From Isurus oxyrinchus (taxonomy: Eukaryota): DNA of 64,000 nt. The stretch lies in the NCBI GenBank assembly GCA_026770705.1, contig JANJGN010000052.1, positions 3,410,001 to 3,474,000 of the forward strand, given 5' to 3'. Each line of letters starts with the position of its first letter. Within the stretch, counting starts at the first letter, position 1. The position numbers and the translations under genes were made by a program. The notes beneath the pieces were generated by a model, which was not told where the DNA came from, made no database searches, and saw nothing but the letters and a program-made list of their open reading frames with translations. Shown here piece after piece: positions 1-47,980 of this stretch.

Positions 1-240
1 GGGTCCGATGGTGGAACCATGTTAACTTGCGATTGTGATTCTTGGAGTGAAATGCTATGATCCCTCTAGACCTTGTATTCCATGTATTCCATGTATACCA
101 TATCACATACCAGATTCCGACACGTGCTCTCCCTACTAAATGTGCTGGATAACTGTAATTACATGGAATCTGTATACACGAACCTTCCTGCGCTGTCACC
201 TCTCGTGGAGTGTCACCTTTCCACTCTTGTGACAGTCCAA
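1..240 (-). CDS. Siglec-like V-set Ig exon V1 (3' part runs off the window start)
   Basis: Acceptor ctctccccag|TT GGA CTG at 240; open frame VGLSQEWKGDTPREVTAQEGSCIQIPCNYSYPAHLVGRARVGIWYVIWYTWNTWNTRSRGIIAFHSKNHNRKLTWFHHRT; paralogous to the other V exons. Confidence 0.9.
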
Positions 241-12000: not shown

Positions 12001-12369
12001 CAGAAACGTGAAGCTGGGTTACAGGGTAATAGTTATGGCTCGGACCATTGTCAAATTCTATTCTGAAAAAATAAGGTCCTGCATCTTCCCGTCTGATGTT
12101 GTTTATAATCAGGGAACAGTCGCCATCTTTCAGGTCTCCAGACAGCCGGGTCCGATGGCGGAACCGTGGTAACTCGTGACTGTGATCCTTGGAGTGAAAG
12201 GCAATGGGAGCCCAGGGAATCTGTGTCTCATTATTAAACCAGAGTCCACCTCGTGGTTGATTTTCCAAATGTGCTGGATAACTGTAATGACATGGAATCT
12301 GTACACACGAACCTTCCTGCGCTGTCACCTCTCGTGGAGTGTCACCTTTCCACTCTTGTGACAGTCCAA
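12001..12369 (-). CDS. Siglec-like V-set Ig exon V2 (essential Arg present; unit A)
   Basis: cag|TTGGA...TCT G|gtaagt, 369 nt, phase 1-1; EGSCVQIPC, GDCSLIINNIRREDAGPYFFRIE Siglec V-set signature. Confidence 0.93.
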
Positions 12370-13229: not shown

Positions 13230-13269
13230 CTTGGAGAAGTGACAGGAGGAAGTAAGATTTCCCGATCAT
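13230..13269 (-). CDS. Signal-peptide exon (unit A): MIGKSYFSLSLLQ
   Basis: Acceptor ctttctctttcag at 13312, GACAATG start context, donor CAAG|gtaata, phase 1 joins V exon giving MIGKSYFSLSLLQVGLS/QEW. Confidence 0.85.
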
Positions 13270-13719: not shown

Positions 13720-13804
13720 CCAGGACCTGTCCGACTGCTCGCCTGGGGAGGAACTGCCCACACGCTCTGCTTGGGCTGAATGACCTCTTCCTGTGCTGCT
13801 CCCT
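13720..13804 (-). other. 85-nt exon cassette upstream of leader (probable 5'UTR exon)
   Basis: Pyrimidine tract + cacag acceptor, strong donor CTGG|gtaagt; same cassette at 21764, 23883, 44054, 46155 and inside the cytoplasmic region at 28457 and 49341. Confidence 0.6.
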
Positions 13805-14084
13805 CTGTGTGTTTAATGAGAAAGGGTTGATGTGTCTCTGGGAGACAAAATGGGGAAGTGGGTAATCAGTGAGAAGTTCGAGGATGTTTTGTGCTCTCAG
13901 CAAAACGTTTACCATGTGATGATCTGTCAGCTCATATTTGGGCAGCTGTAGTCATCAAGCTTCTCCATTGGCTCCGTGGGATTAGACCCCTCCCCCTCAT
14001 CTCAGAGCTGAAGCGCAGGCGATAGACTTCCCAATACAGGTCTCTGGCCGTATGATACATATTGACAATCCCTGATATCATTAC

Positions 14085-20551: not shown

Positions 20552-20582
20552 CAGAAACGTGAAGCCGGGTTACAGGGTAATA
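20552..20582 (-). pseudogene. Remnant of V-set exon (last ~31 nt plus donor)
   Basis: cagaaacgtgaagccgggttacagggtaata matches the 3' end of V2, then jumps directly into upstream intron sequence; ~345 bp including the acceptor are missing. Confidence 0.9.
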
Positions 20583-21273: not shown

Positions 21274-21313
21274 CTTGGAGAAGTGACAGGAGGAAGTAAG
21301 ATTTCCCGATCAT
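21274..21313 (-). CDS. Signal-peptide exon MIGKSYFLLSLLQ (unit B)
   Basis: ATG at 21313, donor gtaata at 21273. Confidence 0.8.
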
Positions 21314-22124
21314 TGTCCACTCCCAGATATTCCATCCACTTCTCACTCTCAAGCTGTGAAAGAGAAAGGAGTTAATGAGACTTCACCTCTTGTCCGACAG
21401 CTTTCAAGAGATCAGAACAGCTTTTAGACAATATCTTCACAGAATAATTTGATTCTCTGTGGGATGATAGGTGCTCTGCAGAGAGTTACGAGGCTTTAAG
21501 AAAGAAAAACAATGAAGGATTTGCATTTCTATCGCAGCTTTCACCTCCTCAGGATATCCCAAAGCTCATGTCTCTGCACTTCCCTCATCCCTTGAGCTAG
21601 AAAGATGTTCTGTACAACAGACTTGAGCCTCACACCCAGATCTCAATAATCAGTAGAAATCTTTCAAAGGCATCAATCATTGGAATCTGTCTTTATAAAG
21701 TCACAACATCAACAAAGGACGGTGTTGGTGGTGGAAGTGAATTCCAATCGTTCCGTTACTTACCCAGGACCTGTCCGACTGCTCGCCTGGGGAGGAACTG
21801 CCCACACGCTCTGCTTGGGATGAATGACCTCTTCCTGTGCTGCCCCCTCTGTGTATTTAGTGAGAAAGGGTTGATGTGTCTCTGTGAGACAAAATGAGGA
21901 AGTTGGATCAAAGTGACAGAGCAGCTCATGTTTTGAGATGTTGGTGAACTTTGTGTCCTGACCCTGTGGTGATATTTCTGCTCACAGGTGGACAGTCAAT
22001 GACCAGGAGTTTCTCCTGTGGGTCAGTGGGTTTCACAGCCAAATTCAGGGGGTCAGAATGTTGTGGGATTCAAGACCCGATTCAGGGGACGTCTGCCCCA
22101 CAGAGTAGACTGAAACTCCCCAGT

Positions 22125-22610
22125 GTCAGTACTGAGCAAGTGCTGCACTGTCGGATGGTCATTACTGAGCGAGTGTTGCACTATTGTAAGGTCAGTACTG
22201 AGGGAGATCTCCACTGTTTGAGGGTCAGTACTGAGGGAGTGCTGCACTGTCAGAGAGACATTAATCAGGGAGTGCTGCAATGTTGGAGGATCAGTACTGA
22301 GGGAGTGCTGCACTGTTGGAGGGTCAGTATTAAGGTGCTGATTTACAAGACAGGACAATGGATTAGGAGCCGTCAGAACTCCCCCCATTATCACCGTCAT
22401 GAATCACTAATTAGCCTAACATTCCTGTCTGCTCTTCAACACAGCTGATTGGCTAATCTGATTCACTATCATTGGTGCACTTTGTATGTTCATTGTCTAA
22501 GGAATCTCTTTGGATCCTCATTGTCTAAGGAATCTCTTTGGATCCTCATGTCTAAGGAATCTTTTTGGATCCTCATTGTCTAAGGAATCTCTTTGGATCC
22601 TCATTGTCTG
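22125..22610. repeat. 30-bp satellite remnant (22125-22340) and ~28-bp tandem CATTGTCTAAGGAATCTCTTTGGATCCT (22490-22610)
   Basis: Visible tandem units; paralogous at 44425-44885. Confidence 0.85.
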
Positions 22611-23399
22611 AGGGATTATTTCTGATCCAAACCCCATATTGTTGTATTGTTGATTCCGATGCAGCATTGTAGACTGACTTGTCCCCAAGCTCAGCACTGA
22701 CCCTACTCCAGCAGACACTGTGAAACACACTAACAAAGCGCCTCTAGCCTGAACTCTGCCTGTGTCAAGAGCAAAGACAAATATGCAAACTGAATATTGA
22801 CACCTTTGCACACGGACAGCTTTACCTTCCTTCTCTCTTTCAGTTATCTTGCTCCCTTATTGAAGTATCTAGCAAGGTGAGAATGGACAGGAAGTGTGAC
22901 ACTGAACAGCCTGTCTATTCTAGGAGCTGCTGTGTTGTCTTTATGGGAAATTCTGATTAAAATCAGCAAAAGACACTAATTTCATTCCTTTGCTATCGGA
23001 GTCCAAGCATCAGGATAGACTTCATCCCCCAATATTTATCACTGTTTCTCAACTCAACACCTCACGCCTTCCGCCACTCGCTGACCTGCACTGGCTCCCA
23101 GACCAGCAGAGCCTCGAGTTTAAGATTCTCATCCTCAATTTCCATTCCCTCCATTCCTCTTCTCCAATCACTTTCTCCTCCAACCATGCAAACCTCAAAG
23201 TCCTCTGCTCTCCTCCAATTCTGCTGTCAGACAGGGAGTCAGTGTATATCAGTGAGCACAGGGGTGATGGGTGAATGGGACTTGGTGTGAGTTTGTACAC
23301 TGGCTCACTGCTGAATCTGTTCCCAATCACAGCTCAGTAAGAATTATGTTTTACAAAGATGATTAGCCATAAATCTGTCCGAGCTGACAATGATATTAC

Positions 23400-23439
23400 C
23401 TTGGAGAAGTGACAGGAGGAAGTAAGATTTCCTGATCAT
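23400..23439 (-). CDS. Extra (tandem-duplicated) signal-peptide exon MIRKSYFLLSLLQ
   Basis: ATG at 23439, donor gtaata at 23399; preceded by its own 85-nt cassette at 23883. Confidence 0.7.
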
Positions 23440-24129
23440 TGTCCACTCCCAGGTATTTCATTGGTTCTCAAGCTGTGAAAGAGAAATGAGTTAATGAGAC
23501 CTCACCTCTTGCCTGACAGCTCTCGAGAGATCAGAACTGCTTTTAGACAATGTCTTCACAGAATAATTTCATTCTCTGTGGGATGATAGGTGCTCTGCAG
23601 AGAGTTACAAGGCTTTAAGAAAGTAAAACAATGAAGGACTTGCATTTCTATATCACCTTTCCCCTGCTCAGGACACCCCAAAGCTCTTGTCCCTGCTCTT
23701 CCCTCATCCCTTGAGCTAGAAAGATGTTCTGTACAACAGACTTGAGTCTCACACCCAGATCTCAATAACCTGTAGAAATCTTTCAAAGGCATCAATCATT
23801 GTGATCTGTCTTTATAAAGTCACAACGTCAACAAAGGACTTTGTTGGTGGTGGAAGTGAATTCCAATCGTTCTGTTACTTACCCAGGACCTGTCCGACTG
23901 CTCGCCTGGGGAGGGACTGCCCACCCGCTCTGCTTGGGCTGAATGACCTCTTCCTGTGCTGCTCCCTCTGTGTGTTTAATTAGAAAGGGTTGATGTGTCA
24001 CTGTGAGACAAAATGAGGAAGTGGTTAGTACCAAGTTAGAAAGCATCTCTTTGCCTCGCACAGTTAGAAAACTGTTAACCCTTTGCGTGCCAAGAATGTG
24101 GCTGAAGGGCCATCGACTGTTCACATGCA

Positions 24130-24890
24130 ACAAGCTCAAGGGGGTTGAACGGGCCTCCTCCTGTTCCTGTGTAACAGGCTTGAGGGGCTGAATGGGCCTC
24201 CTCCTGTTCCTGTATAACAGCGTCGAGGGGGCTGAATGAACCTCCTCCTTCGCTTCTTGTGTAACATGCTTGAGGGGCTGTTTGGGCCCCCTCATGTTCT
24301 TATATAAGATGCTTGTGTGGCTGAATGAGACTTCTCCTGTTCCTATGTAACTGACTTGAGGGGCTTAATGGACCTCCTCCTGTTCCTGTTCATCAAGCTC
24401 ATGGGGCTGAAATGACGTCCTTACGTTCTGGTGTAAGAGGCTCGAAGGGCTGAATGGGCCTCCTCCTGTTCCTGTGTAACAGGCTCGAGGGGCTGAATGG
24501 GCCTCCTCCTGTTCCTGTGTAACAGGCTCGAGGGGCTGAATCGGCTTCCTCCTGTTCCTGTGTAACAGGCTTGAGGGGCTGAATGGCCTCCTCCTTTTCC
24601 TGTATAACAGGCTCATGGGGCTGAATGGCCTCCTCCTGTTCCTGTGTAACAGGCTCGAGGGGCTGAATGGGCCTCCTCCTGTTCCTGTGTAACAGGCTCG
24701 AGGGGCTGAATCGGCTTCCTCCTGTTCCTGTGTAACAGGCTTGAGGGGCTGAATGGCCTCCTCCTTTTCCTGTATAACAGGCTCATGGGGCTGAATGGCC
24801 TCCTCCTGTTCCTGTGTAACAGGCTCGAGGGGGCTGAATGGCCTCCTCCTGTTCCTCTGTAACAGTGTCGAGGGGCTGAATGTCCTCCTC
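24130..24890. repeat. ~41-bp minisatellite GGCTGAATGGCCTCCTCCTGTTCCTGTGTAACAGGCTCGAGG (CR1 3'-end-like unit)
   Basis: Visible tandem units; shorter paralogous array at 46400-46645. Confidence 0.9.
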
Positions 24891-26226: not shown

Positions 26227-26343
26227 TTATAAATTCCCATAAACAGAATCCTTGGCAAAATCACAGTTTGCGTAAAGATCATCATCTGTATCAGGATTGA
26301 CTCCGCGGTTAGATTTCATTTCCAGATCCTTCTCATCTTTCTT
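26227..26343 (-). CDS. Last cytoplasmic exon with LYAN and ITIM-consensus SVYGNL
   Basis: ttctattacag|AAG AAA GAT...; KKDEKDLEMKSNRGVNPDTDDDLYANCDFAKDSVYGNL*. Confidence 0.88.
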   Translation of the reverse strand, partial: KKDEKDLEMKSNRGVNPDTDDDLYANCDFAKDSVYGNL

Positions 26344-29300
26344 CTGTAATAGAAACAGAAATGATCAGAGTGACAATTAGAGTGATCAGTGTTTAGTATT
26401 ATTGATCCAAATCGAAAATTCCACCCACAATAGATACATTAATTATTGATACTAAACAAGGTTTGATTATTGATACTGAACGGGGTTTGATTATTGATTG
26501 TGAATGGGGTTTGATTATTGATACTGAACGGGGTTTGATAATTGATTCTGAAGAGGGTTTGATTATTGATACTGAACGGGGTTTGATTATTGATTCTGAA
26601 TGGGGTTTGATTATTGATTCTGAACGGGGTTTGATTATTGATACTGAACGAGGTTTGATTATTAATTCTGAACGGGGTTTGATTATTGATTCTGAATGGG
26701 GTTTGAATATTGATACTGAACGGGGTTTGATTATTGATACTGAATGGGGTTTGAATATTGATTCTGAACGGGGTTTGATTATTGATACTGTACGGGGTTT
26801 CATTATTGATTCTGAACGGGGTTTGTTTATTGATTCTGAACGGGGTTTGATTATTGATTCTGAACGCGGTTTGATTATTGATTCTGAACGCGGTTTGATT
26901 ATTGATTCTGAATGGGGTTTGATTATTGATACTGAAGCGGGTTTGTTTATTGATAATGAACGGGGTGTGATTATTGATTCTGAACGGTGTTTGATTATTG
27001 ATTCTGAACAGGGTTTGATTATTGATTCTGAACGGGGTTTGATTATTGATTCTGAACAGGGTTTGATTATTGATTCTGAACGGGATTTGATTATTGATTC
27101 TGATCGGGGTTTGATTATTGATTCTGAAGGGGGTTTGATTATTGATACTGAACGGGGTTTAATTATTGATTCTGAACAGGGTTTGATTATTGATACTGAA
27201 AGGGGTTTGATTATTGATTCTGAACAGGGTTTGATTATTGATACTGAATGGGGTTTGATTATTGATTCTGAACGGGGTTTGATTATTGATACTGAACGGG
27301 GTTTGATTATTGATACTGAATGGGGTTTGATTATTGATTCTGAACAGGGTTTGATTATTGATTCTGAATGGGGTTTGATTATTGATTCTGAATGGGGTTT
27401 GATTATTGATACTGAACGGGGTGTGAATACTGATTCTGAACGGGGTTTGATTATTGATACTGAATGGGGTTTGATTATTGATATTGAATGGGTTTTGATT
27501 ATTGATTCTGAATGGGGTTTGATTATTGATTCTGAACGGGGTTTGATTATTGATTCTGAACGGGGTTTGATTATTGATTCTGAACGGGGTTTGATTATTG
27601 ATACTGTACGGGGTTTGATTATTGATACTGAATGGGGTTTGATTATTGATACTGAATGGGGTTTGATTATTGATTCTGAACGGGGTTTGATTATTGATTC
27701 TGAACGGTGTTGGGTGTGAGTTTGGTTGGGTTTGGGAGTGACTGTATAAAACGTTGCAGATACAGGACTGGAGCAGCCATATCAATAACCAGGCTACTGG
27801 AGCAGCTGAGAGGCTGGGGATCCTGTGGTGTGTGACTCACCTGATTCCTCAAAGCCCAACCACGCTCACAGTTTTCATAAACAGGACTTCGATGTTCATC
27901 AACACGATGGTTCGATTTGATTCCTGCTTTTCCCTTGCCTCTCTTCTGTAATAGAGATGGAAATGGACAGAGTGACAATCAACATGATGTGTATTCGGTG
28001 TTGGGTTTGATTACTGGGGAGAGAGTTCCAGATTTCCACTCCCCTTTGTGTGAAGAAGTGCTTCCTGACATCACCCCTGAACGGCCTGGCTCCAATCTGA
28101 AGTTCCGGCCCCCTTGTTCTGGACTCCACCCGACACCCACCACCCACCCCCACTCGAGGGAATAGCTTCTCTCTATCAACCCTATCGAGTGTTTAATCAG
28201 TTTGAACCCCTCAATTAGATCCCTCCTTAATCTTCTAGACCCGAGGGAATATAATCGTAGACTGTGTGTAACCTGTCTGCACAATTTAACCAGAAAGATG
28301 TTCTGTACAACAGACCTGAGTCTCACACCCAGATCTCAATAATCAGTAGAAATCTTTCAAAGGCATCAATCATTGGAATCTGTCTTTATAAAGTCACAAC
28401 ATCAACAAAGGACGGTGTTGGTGGTGGAAGTGAATTCCAATCGTTCTGTTACTTACCCAGGACCTGTCCGACTGCTTGCCTGGGGAGGAACTGCCCACAC
28501 GCTCTGCTTGGGCTGAATGACCTCTTCCTGTGCTGCTCCCTCTGTGTATTTAATGAGAAAGGGTTGATGTGTCACTGTGAGTCAAATGAGGAATTGGGGA
28601 ACAATTATGAAAACACTTTCATTGAAATGTAGGGCCTTAGTGTTGTGTTGTAAACAAACTGTTAACCCTTTGTGTCCTGACTCTGTGACGTGATTCCTGT
28701 GTAAAGCTGAGCAGTCGTTGAGCGAGTTTCAATTCACTGCTCAATCCAGCTGTTGAGGTGGATCTTCTGAAGCAGCAGATGTTGCTCAGCGCTCCTTAAA
28801 AATGTGCGATACTGAACAATGTGTAAGAGGACGAGAGAGAGAATGAGAAGGAGAGCATTAGTGGCGATAGGAGAGAGAGTGAATGAGAGAGAGAATGAGA
28901 AGGCGTGCATTAGTGGCAATAAGAGAGAGTGAATGAATCATGGAAAATGGAAAGAGATTGCATTCACTAACAAAAGAAAGGTTTTTATTTGTATAGCAGC
29001 ATTCACAAACTCAGGAGGTCAGAAGCTATTTTATGGTCCGGGTCAACACTGCCAGTTACAGGACTGAGTTGTGAAACAGTGAGTGTTGGATGAGATGTTA
29101 AACACTAGGTGAACATCAAAACTCTTCAGGGACTGCGAAGGGTTTTGGATTGTAAAAGGTGCTATAGAAATGCAAGTTCTTTCTATAAGGAGAGAAGTTT
29201 GAAGAAAACATTTTCAAAAACAACCAATTAAACCTTCACACTTACTTTCTCACACACTTGAAGATGAAGAATCCACTCAGTCCAACACTCAAACAGATTC

Positions 29301-32300
29301 CAGCTCCAAGCAATCCTGCTTTCCATTCATTGGAATCTCGCCCTGTAAAATCAGCCAATGAATGACTCCGGTACAGTTTGAGAATGGTTCCCTATGTACA
29401 TGTAGTAATTCTGAACTTGTGAAGTGATATTGTCTATGCATGAAAGGTCTATACAAATAACATTTATCTATGTAATATTTATTGATAATATCCATGTACA
29501 TGCAGGTTTCTATAAGGAGGATTCACATATAACAGAGGTGCCAAGCTGCTGAGGTGACACACAGGACTACATACACACCAAACAGCGGAAACAACATGCT
29601 ATAGACAGAGCAAAGCGATCCCACAACCAACGGGTCAGATCTAAGCTCTGCAGTCCTGCCACATCCAGTCATGAATGGTGATGGACAATAAGGATCTAAC
29701 AGGAGGAGGATGTTCCACAAATATCCCCATCCTTAATGATGGGGGAGCTCAGCACATCAGTGCAAACGACAAGGCTGAAGCATTGGCAACCATGTTCAGC
29801 CAGAAGTGCTGAGTGGATGATCCATCTCGGCCTCTTCCAGAGGGTCCCAGCATCACAGATGTCAGCTTTCAGACAATTCGATTGACTCCACGTGACATCA
29901 GGAATCAGCTGATGATACTGGATACAGCAAAGGCTATTGGCCCTGGCAACAACCCAGCAACAGGAAATAATGTGGCTACAAGAGCGGGTAAGAGGCTGGG
30001 AACTCTGCAGTGAGTAATTCAACTCCTGACCCCCCAAAGCCTGTCCACCATCGGACAAGGCACAAGTCAGGAGTGTGATGGAATAATCTCCACTTGGCTG
30101 GATGAGTGCAGCTCCAACAACACTCAAGAAGCTCGACACCATCCAGGAGCAGCTTGTTTGATCGACAGCCCAGCCACCAGCATAAACATTCATACCCTCC
30201 ACCACTGGCACACAATGGCAGCAGTGTGCACCATGTACAAGATGCGCTGCAGCAACTCACCAAGGCTCCTTCGACAGCACCTTCCAAACCCTTAACCTCT
30301 TCCACCAAGACAGTTCCAAGTCAGTGAGGTGTGTGACTTGGAGGCGAACTTGAGGTGGTGGTCTGCCCTGGGACTTGGAACTATATCGGCCGTTCCTTCA
30401 CCGTCTCTGGGTCAAAATCCTGGAACTCCCTCCCTAACAGCACTGTGGGTGTACCTACACCACATGGACTGCAGTGGTTAAAGAAGGCAGCTCACCACCA
30501 CCTTCTCAAGGGGCAGTTACAGATGGGCAATAATTTCTGGCCTTGTCAACAATACTCACATCCCATGAGCTAATAATAAGAGAACGTTCAATTCTGTGTA
30601 ACTCACGTTCCACAGTGATGTTTATGAATCCCTCCACTGCTCCATGTTCATTCTCTGCCACACACTGATAGTCTCCAGTGTCCCTGGATGTAACGTGAGG
30701 AATCACCAACCACAGCTCATTGTTGGAACTTGTTCTGTTCATTGGGACATTAAGATGTCGCCACGTCAGGTTAGAAGCTGGGAAGCTCTCGACAGAGCAG
30801 ATTATCACTGCAGAATTCCCCTCAATTATATTGATCGATGAAGCGTTAATCATATCAAGAGAAGTAATTGAGAGATTCTGTGGTGCATCTATAAACAAAT
30901 AAACATCAATTAAGTTACACTGACTGTGAAGCACTTTGAAAGACACTTAGAATGTGAAAGGTATGATCTCAATGTAGGTTCATTTTCACAAAGCCCGTAA
31001 TCCAGGCAGAGACTTCAGTTCAGTACTGAGGGAGTGCTGCACTGTCAGAGGGTCAGTACTGAGGGAGTGTTGCACTGTCAGAGAGTCAGTACTGAGGGAG
31101 TGCTGCACTGTCAGAGAGTCAGTACTGAGGGAGCACTGCACCGTCAGAGGTTCAGTGCTGAGGGAGTGCGGCACTGTCAGAGGGTCATTACTGAGGGAGT
31201 GCTGTACTGTTGGTGGGTAAGTACTGAGGGAGTGCTGCACTGTCAGAGAGTCAGTACTGAGGGAGTGCTGTACTGTCAGAGGTTCAGTACATAGGGACAG
31301 CTGCACTGTCTGATGGTCAGTCCAGAGGGGGTGCTGCACTGTTGGAGGATCAGAACTCGGGGGGTGCTGCAGTGTGGGAGGGCCAGTACTGAGGGAGCAC
31401 TGCACTGTTGAAGAGTCAGTACTGAGGGAGTGCTGCACTATCGAAGGTTCAGAACTGAGGGAGTGCTGCAGTGTTGGAGATTCAGTATTTAGGGACTGCT
31501 GCAGTGTCCGAGGCGAATTTGTATCAGTTAAAGACTATTGATTTGTTGCTAAACACAATGCAGTTGTGGGATCTTGCAGTGTACTATGTAGAGCTTTCTA
31601 GCTAATGTAGATGGAAGGGTGTCCGTTCTTACCTTGCACAGTTAGTACGAGGGTCCGCTCCGATGAAACAGATGGATATCTCACTCTGCAGCTGAGAGTG
31701 TGTCCGTGGTGTTTGAGTGATGGGATCAGGGTCAGAACAGAAGTATAGGTCAGAGTGACACCATGCTGAGTTACAGTGTTTGAGACTGATCCAGGTACGT
31801 CAGTGGGAGTGTCCCAGGTTAAGACAGGTGCTGCTGTTCCATTGCACGTTGTGTTGAAGGTGCAGCTTACATCCACAGGCTTTCCTGCAATAATTTCCGC
31901 AGGGAATATCGTGGGTTTATCTGTGAAATCTAACAGACAGAGAATGGATCCTTTTAGAGAAATATAACGTGAAGCATCAGTTCAAATAGAAACCACAGTC
32001 CCACAAGAGAAAGCACTTTTACAAGGATGATATCAGAACTGAGAGGTTACAATGATCAGGAGAGCATTTCCTGCTTTGACACTTTGGTGTTTCTGTCTCT
32101 CAGCTTAACACACGTTCACTCCGAGACACTTGAACTGATAATAGTGGGTGAGGGTGGAGGAGCAGACCAGAGTTTGGAGTGCACTACCCCATCATTCACT
32201 CAGCGATCTGGGCCATTTATTACTTTGCAATTTGTGGGAGCTTGCTGTGCGCAAATTGGCTGCTGTGTTTCTCACATTACAACAGTAACTACAATTCAGG

Positions 32301-35300
32301 AATCAGCTCATTGGCTGTGAAGTGATTTGGTACGTTCTGAGGTGGTGAAAGGTGCTATAGAAATGTGAATCTTTCTTCTGTCGATATGTCAGGCTTCGAG
32401 ACATTAGAGATTAGGATTAGAGAGATTGATGGGAGTGGATAACCTGATAACATTGATGGACACAGTCAATATATTTAATCATTGATATTAAAGTGAGTAT
32501 TAGAGGTTGCTTTAGGACTGAACTGGAAGCTATCACCAGGATATCGAGAATCAGACAGTGTGTTATAATAAGCTGTGTTTTGTGTTAATATGTAAACGTC
32601 ATAGTTTGTGTTATTTCCCATTGAGTGTTGAATGTGAAATGTTGAGTAATTATAACACAGCACTTACCAGAAACGTGAAGCTGGGTTACAGGGTAATAGT
32701 TATGGCTCGGAGCATTGTCAAATTCTATTCTGAAAAAATAAGGTCCTGCATCTTCCCGTCTGATGTTGTTCATAATCAGAGAACAGTCGCCATCTTTCAG
32801 GTCTCCAGACAGCCGGGTCCGATGGTGGAACTGTGGTAACTCGTGACTGTGATCTTTGGAGTGAAAGGCTATAGACAATGTTCTCCGTTCCTCATTATGA
32901 AACCAGACTCCAACTCGTGGTTGGTTTTCCAGACACGATGGATAACTGTAATGACATGGAATCTGTACACAGGAATCTTCCTGAGCTGTCACCTCTCGTG
33001 GAGTGTCACCTTTCCACTCTTGTGACAGTCCAACTGTGGAGAGAAATCTCAATATTTATCTCTGGATGTTTTGTGGATCCACTGAACCCGATATTTACAG
33101 ATGAGACAGAATTTGGAGGATGGTTAATACTGAGGAGAATGGCAACAAATTATTTTGGCAGGATGAATAGAAAAACAGAATATTATTTAAATGGAGAGAG
33201 GCTGCAGAATGCAGTACAGAGGGATCTGGGTGTCCTTGTACATGAATCACAGAAAGTCAGCATTCAGGAACACCACGGAATGAGGAAGGCAAGTGGAATG
33301 TTGGCCTTTATTGCAAAGGGATGGAGTATAAAAGGAGGGAAGTCTTGCAACAGCTGCACAGGGCGTTGGTGAGAATGTAACAGGATCATTGTGTACAGGC
33401 AGTTCAGAGAAGCTTCACTGGGCTGATTCCTGGGATTAAAGGGTTTATCCTGTGAGGAAATGTTGAGCAGGTTGGGCCTGTATCCATTGGAGTTTAGAAG
33501 AATGAGGGGTGACCTTATTGAAACATATCCGATTCCGAGGGGGCTTGACAGGGTGGATGCTGGGAGGATGTTTCCCCCTCGTGGGGGAATCTAGAACCAG
33601 GGAGCACAGTTTCGGAATGAGGACTCTCCCATTTAAGACTGAGATGAGGAGGAATTTCCTCTCTCAGAGGGGCGCTAGCCTGTGGAATTCTCTTCCCCAG
33701 AGAGCAGTGGAGGCTGGGCCATTGAATAGACTCAAGGCTGAGTGAGGCAGGTTTTTGATCGACAAGGGAGTCAAGGGTTTGGGGGACAGGCAGGAAAATG
33801 GAGTTAAGGACACCACCAGATCAGTGAGAGCAGGCTCTAGGGGCCGAATGGCCTGCTCCTGTCCCTATTTCTTATGTTCCTACATTCTTACCTTCTTAAA
33901 ATATTAAAGCTGCAGAATAAACATGCAAGTGACTGACCCGCTCGACCCACCTTCCATCTGGGGGTCCCATGGGGAGGACCCTTCCTGAGCCAGATCCACC
34001 AGCCAACATGGTCTGGATCCGAGCACTGGAGACACGGTGGGGAGTGACTAACAGGCTCCTTGTGACAGGCCCCGTCTGTCCAATGGCTGGCTTTCAGCTG
34101 CCATGGCCAGAGTGGTCCTTGCTAAAACCGGCTCAGGACAGGCCAGGACCCCTGTGCAGACCCCCTCCAGCACGGCAGCCTCTGTACAAACCCCTCATGC
34201 GCTTGTGGAGAGACACAAACAAGGCTGCACATTACCGAGGAGAATCCCCTCTACGGACTAAGGGGCTGACTCATCACCTTAAACTCAGCAAATGAGGAGG
34301 CTCTCGCTCGGTATCAGGGCTTGGCATTGGCTCAATAAAAATAATCAAATTACATTTTGGTCAGAAATCTAAGGATGTTGTACATTCCCTCAAAAATAAG
34401 ACTCAAGGCTGAAGGCACAACTGCCGATGTTGGAGTTTTGGGATCGGGGGATGGTCAAGAGGCTTGGATTGGAGGAGCGCAGAGACCTCATATGGTTGGA
34501 GTGACTGGAGGAGGTTACAGAGATAGGAAGTGTTGTACGGTCTGAAAAAGTTAAGAGAGATTGGGAGAGTGTAGGGTCTGGAGGAGATTACAGAGACAGT
34601 GAGGGTTGTAGTGATTAGAGGAGTTACAGAGATAGGGAGGGTTGTAGCGGCTGGAAAAGTTAAGAGAGATTGGGAGAGTGTAGGGTCTGGAGGAGTTTGC
34701 AGAGGTAGGGAGGGTTGTAGTGACTGGGGCAGGTTACAGGGGCAGGGAAAGTTGTCGGGACTGGAGCAGGCTACAGAGATACGGAAGCTTTTAGGGGCAG
34801 GAGGAAGTTACAGAAATAGGGAGGGTTGTAGTGGCTGGAGGAGGTTGCAGAGATTGGTAGGTTTGTTTTGGCAGGATGAATTTACAGCTATAGGGAAGTG
34901 GTAGAGAATTGAAGAGGTTACAGAGAATGGGATGATTGTAGATACTGGAGGAGGACGAGGAGATTACAGGGATAATGAGGAAACAAAGATGAAAATTTGG
35001 ACATTGAGACTTTGCTTGACCAGGAGCCAGTCTCGGTCATCGAGCAGAGCGGGTGATAAGGGAACGGGACTTGGTGTGAGTAAGGACGTGGTCAGCAGTT
35101 TTGGATGGCCTCAAGTTTATGGAGTGTAGAGCATGTGTTGGAACAGTCGAGTGTGGAGGTAATGAAGGTGTGGATGAGGGTTTCAGCAGCAGATGAGCTG
35201 AGACAGGGTGATGTCGTGCGATGTTACGGAGGTGGAAATAGACGGTGTTAGTGAGGGCGCAAATATGAGGCCGGAAGCTCATCTCAGGATCAAATGGGAC

Positions 35301-38300
35301 AACAAAGCTGTGAACAGATTGGCTTCAATCTCAGAGAGCTGTCAGGGAGATGAATGGAGTTGGTAGCGAGGGAACAGAGTTTGGAGCGGGGAATGAAGAC
35401 AATGGCTTCAGTCTTTCCAATATTTAATTGGAGGGAATTTCTGCCCATCCAGTACTGGATGTCGGATAAGCAGCCTGAAAATAAGCAGCAGTGGAGGAGT
35501 CGAGAGAGGTGGTGGTGAGGTAGAGCTGGGCATCCTCAGTGGACAGGTGAAAACTAACACTGTTCAGATGATGCTGCAAAGCCATTGCAAGTGATTCTCT
35601 GGCTACGATGAGATGGATAAGAATGGAGCCAGGGGAGAGCAGTCCCACCCAGCTGGACGACAGTGGAGAGGTGTTTGAGGAGGATGGTGTGGTCGAGCGT
35701 GTCAAAGGCTGCAGACAGATCGAGAAGGACGAGGAGGGAAAGTTGACCTTTGTCACAGTCACACAGGATGCCATTTGTGACCTTGATAAGAGCTGTTTCA
35801 GCACAGTGGCTGGGGTGGGAACCTGATTGGAGGGATTCAAACATGGAGATCCGGGAAAGATGGGAACGGATTCGGGAGATGGAAACACGTTCAAGGACTT
35901 TGGAGGGGAAAGAGAGGCTGGAGATGGGACGGGGGTTTACACGGACAGTGTGAGGGGTGAAAGGTGTAGTGGGGAGGAGATACTTCACTCAGGGGGGAGG
36001 TGTCATCACCCCTCAGCTCGGTTTACGTTACAGCTATGATGTGGATTCAATCACACACAATAAGCTCATGGATCTGGGAGCAGAAATAGACAAATCATTA
36101 AAAATAGTGACGCTGGTTAACACGGCCAAAAAACAAGCAAATCAAACACTATTATTTCCCATTGAGTGTTGGATGTGAATTGGTGAGTAATTATAACACA
36201 GCACTTACCAGAAACGTGAAGCTGGGTTACAGGGGAAACGTTCTGGCTCGGACGATTGCCAAATTTTATCGTGAAAAAATAAGGTCCTGCATCTTCCCGT
36301 CTGATGTTGTTTATAATCAGGGAACAGTCGCCATCTTTCAGGTCTCCAGACAGCCGGGTCCGATGGCGGAACCGTGGTAACTCGTGACTGTGTCCCTTGG
36401 AGTGAAAGGCTATAGACCATTTAGACCATTTGTTCCGTATGTACCTTCTCATTTTCCAGATTCCGACATGTGGTTTCTTTACCAAATCTGATGGATAACT
36501 GTAATGACATGGAATCTGTACACACAAACCTTCCTGCGCTGTCACCTCTCGTGGAGTATCACCTTTCCACTCTTGTGACAATCCAACTGGGGAGAGAAAT
36601 ATCAATATTTAACTCTGGATGTTTTGTTGATCCACTAGACTCGATATCCACCCCCTCCATCACTCGGGCACAGTGGCTGCAGTGTGGACCATCTACAGGA
36701 CACACAATGAACTCCACAAGATATCACACCAGATGGAAGAGAATCCTGGACACAAAAGCGGAAAAGTCCATTCTACATTGGTTCATGGTCCTCAGGACCC
36801 TGTTTGTGCAGAAGTCTGCTCTCCAACAGAACTGAAGTTGGGACAATGCATTTGGAATTCCACTGTCCGGGGCATTGGGTTAACTTGCTGATTTTGTTTT
36901 AAATCTAACATCTATTTTTGGTCTGTTGCCTTTAAGGGACAGTAACTGGGAGTCAGGTTAATTAGGAATTTTAGGAGTTATGATAGCAGTCTTGTAGTTA
37001 CGTATGTGCTTGAAATCCTTTATTTTGATGACAAATATGTTAATTTATTGTTTTAAATCTCTAAAGGTATTGGTGGAGTTATTGCTTCTGGATTAAGTGC
37101 ACACATCTCATAATAAATACAAATTGCAAAATCATTATGATAGTGTGACCACCTTTCTCTCAGGGACTTGGTCTGCCTAGCACACATCACCTGCCAAGTG
37201 ATAACACTGTTGTAATATGCCTTTCAGGGACAGCAGCATGACATCACTCGAGGGGAAGTGTGTCTTGTGATTTTTAGGAACTGGTGTTCGCTTAAGTAAG
37301 TTCTATGTGTATTTGTGTGCGTTAGGCAAAAGGTCTATCTTTAAGTTCAAGTTTAGTTTGTATTTCTATATTTGGGTGTTGAGAAAAGGGGGAACTTGAG
37401 TTAAAAAGAAGCCAGCATTCCATTGAGGTTTTATGACTGTCGAAGGGAAGTCAAAACAAATACAAGGTGTAAGAAACTGTGCTGTTGCCTAGCAACAGTG
37501 ATCCAGAGGGAAGGACCCACAGAGACAGAGAAAAACAGAAAAGTACTTTCAGTTCTGTTGAAAGGAGTTGCCAGGAGAAGCAGCAAAGGAGCGGGACAGA
37601 TAGTCAGTCCCAAAGTAAAGAAGAAGCCAAAACCATCGAGTGGAACAGGAGAAAGGGCCCAAGAAAACCTTCTCGTCAAATCTGGAAAAGGCCCTGTTAA
37701 GTGAAGTTAAGAGTGAGGAGCAGAAGAAGGCTCCAAACATAAAGGGAGAAAGCAGCAGGACACAGGCCTAAAGCAAAATAGGCTTGTGAGAAGCCAGAAG
37801 ATCCTAGGAGACACCACAGGTTGGTGACTCATTACTATGGCCATGTGAAGCCATGGTGTTCCATTGACACGGCCGAGCATTGGAGAGACAGGGCGTGGAA
37901 GGAAGGCTGAATGCACGTGGCGATCCAGGGGGCAGGAACATGGGAAGGAGAGTTTGAAATAGTGAAAGTGGTCCCGTGTGGAAGGTGTCTGAGTGAAAGT
38001 GTCATGTTGGAGAAGATTCCAAAGTGAGTTCTTGCAGAGTGGAGATTGGAAACTCTCATATGAAAGAAGCTTTTCAGTGAGACTGGTTGGCTCACAGTGC
38101 AACAAGCGTCTGGGGACAGATGAGACATAAAAGTTGTTTCAAGTGGGCTCTGCCACTTGCTTTCAGAATGTTGTGTCCCTGACCACAGGTCGTCTATTGG
38201 TTTACACGGACTGTGTACTTAGTGTGAACATGAGAATATAAGATAGTTATCGTAATTTGTGTTCTACTTATGTATCTGTAAAGGTATAGGTCTGGGTGAA

Positions 38301-41300: not shown

Positions 41301-43603
41301 GAAGTACAAGGCTTGTCAAGAGGCTTGTCAAAGAACCACTGATTCCACAGGAAATTCCTGCCCATTCTTAGTCCAAAATCTGAATCCTTTCATGTCCATG
41401 TCACTGACTTCATCGTCATTGTTGACAGCTTTACCAGATATCCCGTTATTCAAAAATAGCACAACACACCAAGCACAACTTCTGCACACACTCGAAGCAC
41501 TATTTTCAGTTTCTTTGGTGAACCTAGGGACATGATTACAGATAATCTGGAATATCAATCACACTACTTCTTCTCCTCATTACCCCAGATCTAACAGCCT
41601 AGCTGAATGAATGATTCACACAGTGAAATCCCTAATTCTCAAATGTAGACAGGCCAAGCAAGATCCACACATTGCAATGTTACATCTGAGATCAACACCT
41701 ACAACTGCAACTTTGTTAAATTCATTCATGGGATGTGGGAGTCACTGGCCAGGCCAGGATTTATTACCCATCCCTAATGTAAGAGTCAACCACATTGACG
41801 TGGAGTCTGGAGTCACATGTCTGCCAGATAATTTTGTTCCCTAAAGGGCACTGGTGAGCCAGGTGGGATTTCTAACAATGGTTTTGTGGTCATCACTAGA
41901 CTTTGAATTTCATCTTTTTATTAAATTCAAATTCCATCATCTATTATGGCCGGATTTGAACCCATATTCTCAGGACATTACCCTGGGTCTCTGAATTACT
42001 CGTCCAGCAACAATACCACTACACCATCACCTCACCTTATTCCATCACTGACAGAGATCATGTTTGGTGTGCCAGTAGTGACCAATTTCGCTACTCTTAC
42101 CCATTCTACTCTCTCAGAAACCAGAGGGCAACTTTTAAAACTACAAGAGAAGATAAGGAATGTTCATGATAAAAATGGAGGTGCAGAGTTGCCAAGTTTA
42201 CAGTTGGGACAAGTTCACATCCAGGATCCCACAGAAGGTTCATGACCACCAGCCGAGGTGACAAGGAATTGTTCAGAACCAAGGGCCTATGGAGTCAAAC
42301 ACACAAGGGCACAGCGGTGAGGTGGAACCGAGGATAACTCAGATCCATTCCCGCTCCTATTCTATCGAGGAGCAGATCCCACGTGAAATCAGGATCACCA
42401 TCCAAGGGTGACAATCCCACAGATCACGGTGAGCAGTTAAAGACACCTCCAGACAAGGTAACCAGCACAAGATCTGGGTGTACCAGAAGGTTAAATCCAC
42501 ACTTGAGAGACTCAAATATTCAACAGTTCCATGCACTTATGTAATTGTCAATAAATATGAACATGATATGAGAAACCGCTTGTTCCCTGCCCTTCTGAAA
42601 GATCCATTCCTGCAGCAGGAGCCTGAAGAGTTACTGATAAGAGATTTAATTTATCGGATTGTAGAATGATCCGGAACTGAAGGAAGCCATTTGGCCCATC
42701 GAGCCTGTGCTGGGCCTTTGAAAGATCTGTCCAATAAGTCCCACTCTAACCTCTGCTCTCTCCTCCACAGCCCTGCAAAATGTCCCCTTCAAGTATTTAT
42801 CCAGTTCCCCTTCTGAAAGTTCCTGTTGAATCTGCTTCCACCGCCCTTGCAGGCAGTGAGTCAATGGTCTCTCTCTGAGCTGCAAAGTGATAAGTTTCAA
42901 TGAAATATAAACTCTGCAGCAGATCAGAAACAATCATGATAACTCAGAATATTTGACAGTTTTACATACAGACAGCTTTGCCTCCCTTCTCTCTATCAGT
43001 TATCTTGCTATCTTATCGAATTTTCTAGCATGGTGAGAAGGGACAGGAAGTGTGACGCTGAACTGCCTGTCTAATCTAAGAGCTTCTGTGTTGTCTTCAT
43101 GGGAAATTCTGATGAAAATCAGCAAGAGAGAAACATTTCAGGGCATTGATATCGGAGTGCTTGCATCAGGATAGACTTTATCCCCCAGTTTTTATCCCTG
43201 CTTCTCTATTCAGCCGATCGCTCCCCTGTCACTCGCTGACCTGCACTGGCTCCCAGTCCAGCAATAACTCAATTTTCAAAATCTCTTCATTGATTCCTTA
43301 TCCCTCCATCCTCCCTCTCCACTCCCTATCACTGTCACCTCCTCCAGCCCTGAAACCCTTTGAGGTCTCTGCTGTCCTGCAGTTCTGCTGTCAGACAGGG
43401 AGTCAGTGTATATCAGTGAGCACAGGGGTGATGGGTGAATGGGACTTGGTGTGAGTTTGTACACTGGCTCACTGCTGAATCGGTTCCCTATCAGAGCTCA
43501 GTAAGAATGTTCTTTTACAAAGACTATTCACCATAAGTCTGTCCAAGCTGACGATGTTATTACCTTGGAGAAGTGACAGGAGGAAGTAAGATTTCCCGAC
43601 CAT
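26227..43603 (-). CDS. Unit C: complete inhibitory-type Siglec-like receptor gene, L-V(Arg-)-V(Arg+)-C2-Ig-TM-cyt(ITIM)
   Basis: join(43564-43603, 36209-36586, 32668-33033, 31633-31929, 30607-30888, 29246-29342, 28457-28541, 27841-27945, 26227-26343); all GT-AG, phase-compatible, no internal stops seen. Confidence 0.8.
26440..27710. repeat. 24-bp minisatellite TTGATTATTGATTCTGAACGGGGT, ~53 copies (intronic)
   Basis: Visible tandem array; gives the spurious 418-aa GLIIDSER ORF. Confidence 0.97.
27841..27945 (-). CDS. Cytoplasmic exon with VYEN motif
   Basis: tctctattacag|AAG...CAG|gtgagt, 105 nt, phase 0-0; KRGKGKAGIKSNHRVDEHRSPVYENCERGWALRNQ. Confidence 0.85.
28457..28541 (-). CDS. Candidate first cytoplasmic exon (85 nt, phase 2-0)
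   Basis: Reads (K)GSSTGRGHSAQAERVGSSSPGKQSDRSW and bridges the TM exon (phase 2) to the VYEN exon (phase 0); an alternative phase 2-0 candidate exists at 28667-28766. Confidence 0.55.
29246..29342 (-). CDS. Transmembrane exon, uncharged core (unit C)
   Basis: ttttacag|GG CGA...AGA AA|gtaagt; RRDSNEWKAGLLGAGICLSVGLSGFFIFKCVRK. Confidence 0.9.
29520..30510 (+). mobile_element. Decayed non-LTR retrotransposon fragments
   Basis: Degenerate RT-like remnants (..QVRSVME, SAAPTTLKKLD, WNSLP); paralogue at 50455-51490. Family not determined. Confidence 0.6.
30607..30888 (-). CDS. Membrane-proximal C2/I-set Ig exon (unit C)
   Basis: 282 nt, phase 1-1; DAPQNLSI...VIICSVESFPASNLTW...DTGDYQCVAENEHG, CD22/MAG-like. 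Confidence 0.92.
31020..31510. repeat. 30-bp CAGTACTGAGGGAGTGCTGCACTGT minisatellite
   Basis: Visible tandem units. Confidence 0.93.
31633..31929 (-). CDS. Siglec-type domain-2 C2-set exon (unit C)
   Basis: 297 nt, phase 1-1, donor gtaaga. Confidence 0.92.
32668..33033 (-). CDS. V-set exon V3 (Arg present, extra B-C loop Cys)
   Basis: 366 nt; IPCHYSYPSCLENQPRVGVWFHNEERRTLSIAF...DAGPYFFRIEF. Confidence 0.93.
33090..33885 (+). mobile_element. CR1 LINE 3' fragment
   Basis: YYLNGERLQNAVQRDLGVLVHESQK, WNSLPQRAVEA; paralogue at 60250-61080. Confidence 0.85.
34500..34975. repeat. Degenerate ~38-bp purine-rich tandem (GGAGGAGGTTACAGAGATAGGGAGGGTTGTAGGGACT)
   Basis: Visible units; longer array at 61160-62150. 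Confidence 0.8.
34990..35990 (-). mobile_element. L2-clade LINE reverse transcriptase fragment
   Basis: ORF 35554-35988 RPISSLSFPSKVLE...ETALIKVTNGIL...LVLLDLSAAFDTLDH. Confidence 0.85.
36209..36586 (-). CDS. V-set exon V4 (essential Arg replaced by Thr; basic C-C' loop)
   Basis: 378 nt; VGIWKMRRYIRNKWSKWSIAF...DAGPYFFTIKFGNRPSQNVSP. Confidence 0.93.
37211..38502 (+). mobile_element. Putative LTR, copy 2
   Basis: Paralogue of 870-2180. Confidence 0.45.
39306..42360 (+). mobile_element. Degenerate Ty3/Gypsy-type retrotransposon internal region, copy 2
   Basis: gag zinc knuckle (39657-39977), aspartic protease motif AKIDTGASANI (~40560-40600), integrase-like remnant SPHYPRSNSLAE*MIHTVKSLILKC (~41570-41650). 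Confidence 0.8.
43564..43603 (-). CDS. Signal-peptide exon MVGKSYFLLSLLQ (unit C)
   Basis: ATG at 43603, donor gtaata at 43563. Confidence 0.85.
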
Positions 43604-45671
43604 TGTCCACTCCCAGATATTCCTTTAGCTTCTGACTCTTAAACTGTGAAAGAGAAAGGAGTTAATGAATCCTCACCTCCTGTCCGACAGCTCTCGAGAG
43701 ATCAGAACTGCTTTTAGACAATGTCTTCAAAGACTAATTTGGTTCTCTGTGGGATGATAGGTGCTCTGCAGAGAGTTAAAAAGCTTTAAAAAAATAAATC
43801 AATGAAGGACTTGCATTTCTATAGCACCTTTCACCACCTCAGGATGTCCCAAAGCTCATGTCCCTGCTCTTCCCTCATCCTTTGAGCTAGAAAGATGTTC
43901 TGTACAACAGACCTGAGCCTCACACCCTGAACTCAATAATCAATAGAAATCTTTCGAAGGCATCAATCATTGGAATCTGTCTTTATAAAGTCACATCATC
44001 AACAAAGGACGGTGTTGGTGGTGGAAGTGAATTCCAATCGTTCCGTTACTTACCCAGTACCTGTCCGACTGCTCGCCTGGGGAGGAACTGCCCACACACT
44101 CTGATTGAGCTGAATGACCTCTTCCTGTGCTGCTCCCTCTGTGTGTTTAATGAGAAAGGGTGGATGTGTCACTTTGAGACAAAATGAGGAAGTTGGATCA
44201 AAGTGACAGAGCAGCTCATGTTTTGAGATGTTGGTGAACTGTTAACCCTTTGTGTCCTGACCCTGTGGTGATATTTTTGCTCACAGGTGGACAGTCATTG
44301 ACCAGGAATTTCTCCTGTGGGTCAGTGGGTTTCACAGCCAAATTCAGGGGGACAGAACGTTGTGGGGTTCAAGACCCCATTCAGGGGACGTCTGCCCCAC
44401 AGTGTAGACTGAAACTCCCCAGTGTCGGTACTGAGCAATTGCTGCACTGTCGGATGGTCATTACTGAGCGCGTGTTGCACTATTGTAAGGTCAGTACTGA
44501 GGGAGATCTCCACTGTTTGAGGGTCAGTACTGAGGGAGTGCTGCACTGTCAGAGGGACATTAATCAGGGAGTGCTGCAATGTTGGAGGATCAGTACTGAG
44601 GGAGTGCTGCACTGTTGGAGGGTCAGTATTAAGGTGCTGATTTACAAGACAGGACAATGGATTAGGAGCCCTCAGAACTCCCCCCATTATCACCGTCATG
44701 AATCACTAATTAGCCTAACATTCCTGTCTGCTCTTCAACACGGCTGATTGGCTAATCTGATTCAATCTGATTGGTGCACTTTGTATGTTCATTGTCTAAG
44801 GAATCTCTTTGGATCCTCATTGTCTAAGGAATCTCTTTGAATCCTCATTGTTTAAGGAATTTCTTTGGATCCTCATTGTCTAAGGGATTATTTCTGATCC
44901 AAACCCCATATTGTTGTATTGTTGATTCCGATGCAGCATTGTAGACTGACTTGTCCCCAAGCTCAGCACTGACCCTACTCCAGCAGACACTGTGAAACAC
45001 ACTAACACAGTGCCTCTAGCCTGAGCTCTGCATGTGTCAAGAGCAAAGACAAATATGCAAACTGAATATTGACACCTTTACACACGGACAGCTTTACCTT
45101 CCTTCTCTCTTTCAGTTATCTTGCTCCCTTATTGAAGTATCTAGCATGGTGAGAATGGACAGGAAGTGTGACACTGAACAGCCTGTCTATTCTAGGAGCT
45201 GCTGTGTTGTCTTCATGGGAAATTCTGATTAAAATCAGCAAAAGACACAAATTTCATTCCTTTGCTATCGGAGTCCAAGCATCAGGATAGACTTCATCCC
45301 CCAGTATTTATCACTGTTTCTCAACTCAACACCTCACACCCTCCGCCACTCGCTGACCTGCACTGGCTCCCAGTCCAGCAGAGCCTCGAGTTTAAGACTC
45401 TCATCCTCAATTTCCATTCCCTCCATTCCTCTTCTCCAATCACTTTCTCCTCCAACCATGCAAACCTCAAAGTCCTCTGCTATCCTCCAATTCTGCTGTC
45501 AGACAGGGAGTCAGTGTATATCAGTGAGCACAGGGGTGATTGTTGAATGGGACTTGGTGTGAGATTGTACACTGGCTCACTGCTGAATCTGTTACCAGTC
45601 ACAGCTCAATAAGAATGATCTTTTACAAAGACTATTCACCATAAATCTATCCGAGCTGACGATGATATTAC

Positions 45672-45711
45672 CTTGGAGAAGTGACAGGAGGAAGTAAGAT
45701 TTCCTGATCAT
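45672..45711 (-). CDS. Extra signal-peptide exon MIRKSYFLLSLLQ
   Basis: ATG at 45711, donor at 45671; paralogue of 23400-23439. Confidence 0.7.
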
Positions 45712-47980
45712 TGTCAACTCCCAGATATTTCATTGGTTCTCAAGCTGTGAAAGAGAAATGAGTTAACGAGACCTCACCTCTTGTCCGACACCTCTCGAGA
45801 GATCAGAACCACTTTTAGACAATGTCTTCACAGAATAATTTCATTCTCTGTGGGATGATAGTTGCTCTGCAGAGAGTTACAAGGCTTTAAGAAAGTAAAA
45901 CAATGAAGGAGTTGCATTTCTATGTCGCCTTTCACCTGCTCAGGACATCCCAAAGCTCATGTCCCTGCTCTTCCCTCATCCCTTGAGCTAGAAAGATGTT
46001 CTGTACAACAGACTTGAGCCTCACACCCAGATCTCAATAATCAGTAGAAATCTTTCAAAGGCATCAATCATTGGAATCTGTCTTTATAAAGTCACAACAT
46101 CAACAAAGGACGGTGTTGGTCGTGGAAGTGAATTCCAATCGTTCCGTTACTTACCCAGGACCTGTCCGACTGCTCGCCTGGGGAGGAAGTGCCCACACGC
46201 TCTGCTTGGGCTGAATGACCTCTTCCTGTGCTGCTCCCTCTGTGTGTTTAATTAGAAAGGGTTGATGTGTCACTGTGAGACAAAATGAGGAAGTGGTTAG
46301 TACCAAGTTAGAAAGCATCTCTTTGCCTCGCACAGTTAGAAAACTGTTAACCCTTTGTGTGCCAAGAATGTGGCTGAAGGGCCATCGACTGTTCACATGC
46401 TTTAAGCTCGAGGTGGTTGAACGGGCCTCCTCCTGTTCCTGTGTAACAGGCTCGAGGGGCTGAATGGGCCTCCTCCTGTTCCTGTGTAACAGGCTTGAGG
46501 GGCTGAAAGGCCTCCTCCTTTTCCTGTATAACAGGCTCATGGGGCTGAATGGCCTCCTCCTGTTCCTGTGTAACAGGCTCGAGGGGGCTGAATGGCCTCC
46601 TCCTGTTCCTGTGTAACAGGGTCGCGGGGCTGAATGTCCTCCTCTCATTAAAAATAAATACTGCAGATGTTGTAAATCTTCAATAAAAATGAAAAATGTT
46701 GCCTTAACTCAGCAGGTCTGGCAGCAGCTGTGGAGAGAGAAACAGAGTTTTTGCTTATAGACTCTGAAGAAGGGTCATACGGACTCGAAATGTTAATTCT
46801 GTTTATCTCTCCTCAGATGCTGCCAGACCTACTCAGTTTCTCCAGCATTTTCTGTTTTTATTTCAGGTGCTCTCTTGTTCCTGTGTAGCAGGTTCGAGGG
46901 GGCTGAATGGCCTCCTCCTGTTCCTATTCAATGGGCAGTCAAAGTATGCATCTGATTTTGGACCTCAAACCCAATTCTCTCCTCAGGACATTGACAGATG
47001 GAGAGACCAGTTACAGATCAATGCAGGAGGATTATTTATTTTCCCAATCTTTTATCCAAGAATGTCATCAAACATAGAGCAGAACCAGGATCAAGGATGT
47101 TGGTCTCTGTGATCTGAAACACATCGCACAGTCCACCCATCCACTCAGCCTTCAGAATGGATGCTAATTGTACTCTCCAAGTGTGAAAGACTAAAATTGA
47201 GGTTTATTGCAGCTATATCTCATTCTGTTATCAAAGCTGTCTCATCCATCCATGAACTTCTGAAGAAGGTAAACCTGCAACCAATTTTTCACATCATAAT
47301 TTCCAATGTTCACTGGCAACATCAATGTAAACATGTCACGCTGAAATGATGTCCTCCTACCAGTGGTGGCACTGTAGCACATCTGTTCTCCTCTGAGCTG
47401 CAGAGAATTTCTCAAACCTCCAAACAAATTGTTTCCCTGTTTCCCAGATTGCTGTTAGTTTTGCTGATAACGATGAAGTGTAAAATCCAAATATATATCT
47501 GAAAATACATTTGATTACAAAATGCTGAGTAAATTTTGCCTATCTCCTCTGCTCCAATTATCCACCGATCCTGCATTTCCTGAAGTCTACACTGGCTGAT
47601 GAATATTCTGTAAACACTGACTGACAGGAAGGTGAATAACAGAATGAAAATTAACTCATAATCATGGACACGGGATTGAATTTGTCCGTTCTGTCCTGGT
47701 ACATCATCGAACGATATCCAAAGACATTTACAATCAGAATGGAGAGAAGGATGTTTCCAACAGGGAGGGACAATTCTGAAGGAGGATGTTCGAATTGAAA
47801 CCCACAGACAATCATCCTGGATAGATCATTCCGAAGAAATTCCATCAGATTGTAACAAGAGGTTTAAATCTATTTCCTGGGAGTGAGTTCCTGTGGATAT
47901 TAGGAAGGTAAGTTAGAGTTTTGAATGATTCTCCCGTTCTGTATTCTCCCTACACTGTGTGTGTCTCATTCTTGCTCAGT

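Follow-up and report, generated by a model that had tools for sequence, protein, structure and literature searches.

An additional cysteine in the B-C loop marks those V-set domains of shark and ray Siglec-like receptors that follow another V-set domain, probably as the disulfide partner of the first cysteine (A'-B) in the preceding V domain; we give this reading a probability of roughly three in four. Pairing of the inner-domain cysteine with an otherwise free cysteine of the outer domain had been proposed in an initial annotation of the locus. The bond is deduced from, and supported by, the co-occurrence of the extra cysteine with an upstream V domain, the presence of the first cysteine in 41 of 41 parsed V domains that precede another V domain, and the pose of a predicted model.

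Tandem-V Siglec genes in the window

The minus strand of the window (the whole stretch of 64,000 nt that was analysed) carries tandem Siglec/MAG-like genes of a shark, which form part of a huge Siglec-like cluster. The nearest annotated proteins, from Carcharodon and Cetorhinus, showed 84-88% identity, and database names of homologues were 'Siglec-12/13-like, CD33-like, MAG-like'. A first look at the genome yielded 1041 V-exon candidates, indicating a very large family. Exon translations showed a V-set domain with a B-E intra-sheet cysteine pair and no F-strand cysteine, within a type I membrane layout of leader, transmembrane segment and a tail with tyrosine motifs. The best PDB sequence matches were CD33, MAG and Siglec-5, -10 and -8 (E 1.5e-24 to 7e-20), and the best fold match was sialoadhesin domain 1 (Z 18.0, rmsd 1.8 Å, 115 aligned). 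The first V cysteine and the C2 B-C loop cysteine were both present and, at the level of sequence, coincided with those of CD33, the shark V-C2 pair aligning with CD33 cysteine for cysteine.

The gene carrying the extra cysteine has the layout leader-V4-V3-C2-C2-TM-tail and is intact, being open from the leader (43603) to the three tail exons. On the minus strand it comprises a leader exon at 43564..43603 with ATG and GT donor (another copy of the leader begins at 45711), the outer V-set exon V4 at 36209..36586 (378 nt, open), the inner V-set exon V3 at 32668..33033 (366 nt, open, phase 1/1), a first C2 exon at 31633..31929, an open second C2-type exon at 30607..30888, a transmembrane exon at 29246..29342 and, across 26227..28541, three cytoplasmic exons (28541-28457, 27945-27841, 26343-26227) in frame to the stop. 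No leader exon was found in the window between V4 and V3. The tail exons contain three tyrosine motifs, the last of which we take to be ITIM-like, as the sole one matching the ITIM consensus. In V3 the first cysteine is encoded at 32971-32969, the B-strand cysteine at 32956-32954 and the extra B-C loop cysteine by TGT at 32933..32935, at +7 from the B-strand residue. V4 has its first cysteine codon at 36524-36522, the proposed partner of the V3 extra cysteine, and Asp (GAT) at +7. The first C2 exon has its B cysteine at 31864 and a further cysteine at +6 (31846), as had been reported; by homology the latter is the canonical partner of the V3 first cysteine.

Codons at the remaining V exons of the window, all on the minus strand, likewise agreed with the initial annotation, which had read the extra cysteine in V3 and V5, Asp in V4 and V6 and His in V1 and V2. 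V5 (59826..60194) is an inner exon with an AEPS start and the extra cysteine codon at 60096-60094, and its outer partner V6 (63386..63763) has Asp (GAT) at +7; the layout of this V6-V5 gene is that of the V4-V3 gene, and in its leader, which lies outside the window, AT replaces the GT donor. V2 (12001..12369), a single leader-adjacent V exon with His (CAT) at +7, served as internal control. V1, of which the 5' part lies at 1..240, also has His (CAT) and is an outer V, its cysteine-bearing inner partner being located just beyond the window (C52:3405889 of the same contig). In V3 the F-strand Arg is kept, its YFFR aligning with the YFFR of CD33. The outer domains V4 and V6 have Thr for this essential Arg (YFFT), whereas V3 and V5 keep it. 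FR was present on the F strand in 49 of 52 intact after-V exons versus 25 of 33 intact leader-adjacent exons, the other 8 of 33 having Thr or Ser for Arg.

Several further structures could be observed in the window. Leader exons occur in tandem pairs about 2.1 kb apart (43564-45711; 21274-23439), the leader pattern having 494 exact matches genome-wide, and the sequence of the first cytoplasmic exon recurs some 500 nt upstream of leader exons (13720-13812, 21764-21856, 23883-23975, 44054-44146, 46155-46247). Minisatellites with units of about 24, 33 and 44 nt occupy intronic or intergenic positions at 26439-27711, 14078-15765, 24097-24890 and 31020-31513. The V2 gene ends after a broken C2 fragment and is followed by V1, which lacks a leader of its own (1-13269). 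In another gene, extending to 17114, a deletion has left 30 nt of the V exon (20553-20582; excluded from the V-exon counts); the second C2 exon of this gene is partial, and its transmembrane exon is a different one that contains Arg.

The extra cysteine and exon position

In 864 kb of contig C52 around the window, 61 V exons longer than 200 nt were found, 31 of which followed a V exon and 30 of which did not (16 outer, 14 single). The extra cysteine was present in 31/31 of the former and in 0/30 of the latter (Fisher p = 4e-18, which is overstated because the exon copies are related and do not represent 61 independent tests). The six V exons of the window would by themselves have made a weak case. 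V arrays in this survey reached up to seven V exons. Elsewhere on the contig, one outer V exon is followed by eight cysteine-bearing V exons at a spacing of about 2 kb (G000:C52:2282000-2301000), with one damaged acceptor. The residue had been described as confined to V domains in second position; its tie to a preceding V domain held, but 'second' had to be widened to any position after another V. The AEPS start of V5 had also been read as a sign of internal position. It is true of V5, but V3 keeps VGLS, so AEPS is not required of an inner domain; AEPS or DKPS opened 20 of 31 inner exons versus 0 of 26 parsed first exons, and the argument from it is weak.

Among 104 polymorphic columns of the exon (those with a second allele in at least 5 exons), full separation of the two classes was achieved only by nt 100, the middle of the cysteine codon, and by the synonymous nt 102. 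Just 7 nt distinguished four inner exons from a first exon, and 4 of these differences fell within nt 98-102. On an exon tree built without the codons of the cysteine block the inner label had to change 5 times, and well-supported branches forced at least 2 of these changes. We infer from these patterns that gene conversion may have acted across the exon while the cysteine block was held by position. Selection would then retain the cysteine where an exon is inner and exclude it from functional first exons, with gene conversion shuffling the rest.

The same data bear on the idea that the cysteine is a neutral mark of lineage, which arose once in an ancestral inner exon and was copied together with the inner-type upstream intron. 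The upstream intron does separate inner exons fully from the others, the codon is TGT in all 31 inner exons, and nt 102, although synonymous, is linked as tightly as the cysteine itself, so that shared descent contributes to the pattern. Variation at nt 1-96, between intron and cysteine, and at sites 3' of the cysteine is, however, common to both classes, which argues against the copying of a single block, and the only transfers to first position that were detected lie in disabled genes. We regard a purely neutral mark as the least probable of the alternatives weighed here.

The transfers in question came from a wider search. The pattern of the cysteine-bearing exon had 246 exact matches genome-wide, of which 148 lie on contigs other than C52; the tables of position and intactness cover C52. 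Of 69 further matches on C52, 62 followed a V exon, 6 were leader-adjacent and 1 was an orphan. Position was taken for 37 of the 69 from match lists (a V exon listed at most 6 kb upstream, with no leader listed in the interval) and for 32 from the sequence, where 25 lay after a V, 6 after a leader and 1 had nothing upstream within 18 kb. A cysteine in a leader-adjacent V exon had been named as evidence against the proposed pairing, and these six exons are literally such cases; but all six genes are disabled. Three have ATA for the start codon and an in-frame stop upstream, one of these also having a stop at the C2 partner cysteine; one has lost both start and donor, and two have a stop inside the V exon. 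The six cases represent about two or three independent events. The orphan exon is frameshifted and lies behind an inner-type intron. Among leader-adjacent exons without the cysteine, 33 of 41 were intact (C52:3759099 was dropped, having no anchor). One intact-looking inner exon carries Tyr instead of Cys (C52:868671), which counts against the pairing.

Other sharks and rays, bond partners and domain pose

To a survey of 105 annotated shark and ray proteins, all of them predicted gene models with isoforms that inflate the counts, the same rule largely applied. Of readable HMM-called domains following a V domain, 38 of 49 carried the cysteine, spread over 11 species that range from rays to four shark orders, as opposed to 0 of 76 leader-adjacent domains; four more leader-adjacent domains outside the HMM parse also lacked it. 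Among other domains the residue was found in 1 of 17, this being a leaderless gene model that begins with AEPS. The co-occurrence of the cysteine with an upstream V domain, which had been put forward as a check on paralogues, thus held in intact genes of the contig and across sharks and rays. Judged by sequence, the extra cysteine is a real, lineage-wide feature of these fishes.

Eleven of the 49 inner domains lacked the cysteine although the upstream first cysteine stays, an observation against the pairing and in favour of a neutral mark. Some of the eleven belong to P0001, a model plainly fusing genes, and four to two ray proteins with another extra cysteine. In the latter, the four-V proteins P0010 and P0013, V2 and V4 lack the +7 cysteine and in each of them an extra cysteine lies five residues after the C-strand Trp; the extra cysteines of P0010 are even in count, which hints at a second pairing solution. 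A domain tree with the cysteine site masked gave 10 label changes, at least 3 of them forced (the alignment is short and has many open forks). Cysteine-bearing ray domains nest among ray domains, and domains cluster largely by lineage; that the cysteine has nevertheless persisted from rays to four shark orders speaks against neutrality.

Whether the V domains are joined in one chain bears on another explanation, by which the V exons are alternative cassettes, most proteins contain one V domain and the cysteine or its five-base block has some other role, such as splice regulation. All V exons are of phase 1/1, so that exon skipping keeps the frame. In contigs from five presumed RNA runs (0.2-0.3 of words), leader-V and V-C2 were joined at the expected sites; no V-V junction was seen in them, which at this partial coverage cannot show absence. 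Gene models of 11 species, on the other hand, join V to V in frame, and what can be traced across species is the amino acid rather than its DNA context. A product joining the leader to an inner V domain would also expose an unpaired cysteine, a state seen only in disabled genes. We therefore hold cassettes to be improbable, marginally less so than a neutral mark.

The other possible destination of the cysteine is another chain, in a homodimer or with a partner protein, the first cysteine of the outer V domain then being free or itself paired with another chain. Isolated CD33 V domains do form inter-chain bonds through a free cysteine, according to the available text of PMC6669322, and sequence counts are blind to the difference between intra- and inter-chain partners. 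An inter-chain bond would, however, leave unexplained why the cysteine depends on an upstream V domain and is absent from working first domains, whereas an intrachain bond gives an even number of cysteines in every intact array; the modelled loop, moreover, is in a Siglec-like domain 1-2 pose. We consider inter-chain pairing unlikely, though the strongest of the three alternatives.

This pose was taken from an AlphaFold model, built with 25 sequences, of the predicted basking-shark isoform P0014 (leader-V-V-TM); it has pTM 0.42, mostly confident domains and a linker (140-144) of pLDDT <50. The extra cysteine of the model lies in the B-C loop. Superposition of both domains on Siglec-10 domains 1-2 gave Z 14.4 and an rmsd of 3.5-3.8 Å over 208-211 aligned residues, and two-domain overlays gave 4.8-4.9 Å for CD33, 4.9-5.2 Å for Siglec-5 and 6.2-6.6 Å for MAG. 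Non-Siglec two-domain matches gave 7.3-18.8 Å, among them JAML (7.8 Å), butyrophilin/PD-L1 (11-12 Å), pIgR (13.9 Å), Fabs (13-15 Å) and VCBP3 (18.8 Å); JAML, VCBP3 and pIgR, like the shark proteins, have consecutive V-type domains in one chain, but the model overlays on them less well. The model supports a V-V arrangement resembling Siglec domains 1-2, which concerns the pose and not the bond, and the pose may have been learned from Siglec domain 1-2 structures.

Counted from where strand G ends, the V-V linker, which runs to the A-strand Trp, measured 6 residues in 34 of 37 junctions and the V-C2 linker, which runs to the A-strand Pro, 5 residues in 89 of 90, so that the +7 cysteine sits behind a linker one residue longer than that in front of the +6 cysteine. 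Alignments to MAG (5lfr/5lfv) that spanned domains 1 and 3, with an rmsd of 20 Å, were set aside, and Foldseek 'pdb' matches, mostly scFv, were uninformative on the V-V pose. A complex prediction with outer and inner V as separate chains showed a small interface; the alignment was unused in it, and it was counted neither way. Single-sequence AlphaFold of P0011 gave a pLDDT of 37.

Known Siglecs and the proposed V-V link

The available text of three reports describes the Siglec interdomain disulfide as a V-to-C2 link (PMC5150538, PMC6669322, PMC10122656), namely C37-C165 in MAG (PMC5150538), C36-C169 in CD33, where a free C36 leads to disulfide oligomers (PMC6669322), and C46-C172 in Siglec-6, where C46A and C172A are expressed but glycolipid binding is lost (PMC10122656). 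As in these proteins, the donor cysteine of the shark domains lies five residues before the B-strand cysteine and the proposed partner in the B-C loop of the domain that follows. In the shark the acceptor differs from theirs in being a V-set domain (+7, linker longer by one residue), and the link would be repeatable along a V array.

Tandem V domains in front of C2 domains, with the first cysteine kept in the outer V, are also found in primate Siglec-12/XII, which has two V-set domains (PMC6288428) and in humans the change R122C; loss of the Arg from the outer V is thus common to human Siglec-12 and to shark V4, where it is Thr. Unlike the shark domains, the second V domain of snub-nosed monkey Siglec-12 (P0198) has no B-C loop cysteine, and shark arrays, unlike Siglec-12, reach seven or more V exons. 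Among the best 150 hits, 133 were new and distant, and 8 of these were tandem-V. Seven of the eight were Siglec-type proteins of tetrapods (the monkey Siglec-12, five frogs and one turtle), and inspection by eye found the B-C loop cysteine in none of their inner domains, a point against the pairing. Xenopus, Pelodytes, Hyperolius, Leptobrachium, Bufo and Terrapene share two or three tandem Siglec-type V domains with the shark. The inner V domains of Xenopus (P0123) and Hyperolius (P0147) have an extra A-strand cysteine near the junction, and the first cysteine has been lost from outer domains in Bufo (P0215). It is possible that these represent independent fixes for a free thiol, and a V-V bond by another route is possible in tetrapod tandem-V proteins. 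Among the papers listed by literature searches, none dealt with multi-V Siglecs of sharks or with a V-V disulfide, and the accessible parts of PMC7426717, PMC13358205, PMC6288428, PMC8455134 and PMC7226832 describe no V-V disulfide.

The favoured intrachain bond suggests how a V array could be held together. The first cysteine was observed in every V exon, so that duplication of a V domain leaves the outer copy without a C2 partner. An inner V cysteine in the loop that matches that of C2, one residue further along, would copy the link between domain 1 and C2: the first cysteine of each V domain would bond the +7 cysteine of the next, and that of the last V domain would bond C2. Each inner V domain would accept a bond from the front and donate one backwards, and arrays of 2-7 or more V domains would consequently form a chain in which no thiol is left free and the hinges are restricted. 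The benefit would lie in the avoidance of stray bonds and in a fixed orientation of domains.

A more far-reaching proposal, to which we assign slightly less than an even chance, is that sharks and rays evolved a self-chaining Siglec V module. A single cysteine would make a domain acceptor as well as donor and would have licensed repeated exon duplication into covalently linked rods that hold up to 7-9 lectin domains. The Arg of the inner domains would let one such chain bind sialic acid multivalently, and the module would be maintained by selection that acts on a single codon according to its position, against a background of gene conversion among hundreds of V exons. The locus is also a clear example of a single codon that follows exon position in spite of gene conversion. 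If true, the V-V version of the interdomain disulfide would reveal a way for a lectin domain, once duplicated, to deal with its unpaired cysteine, and would account for a shark family of receptors that carry many V domains in each chain.
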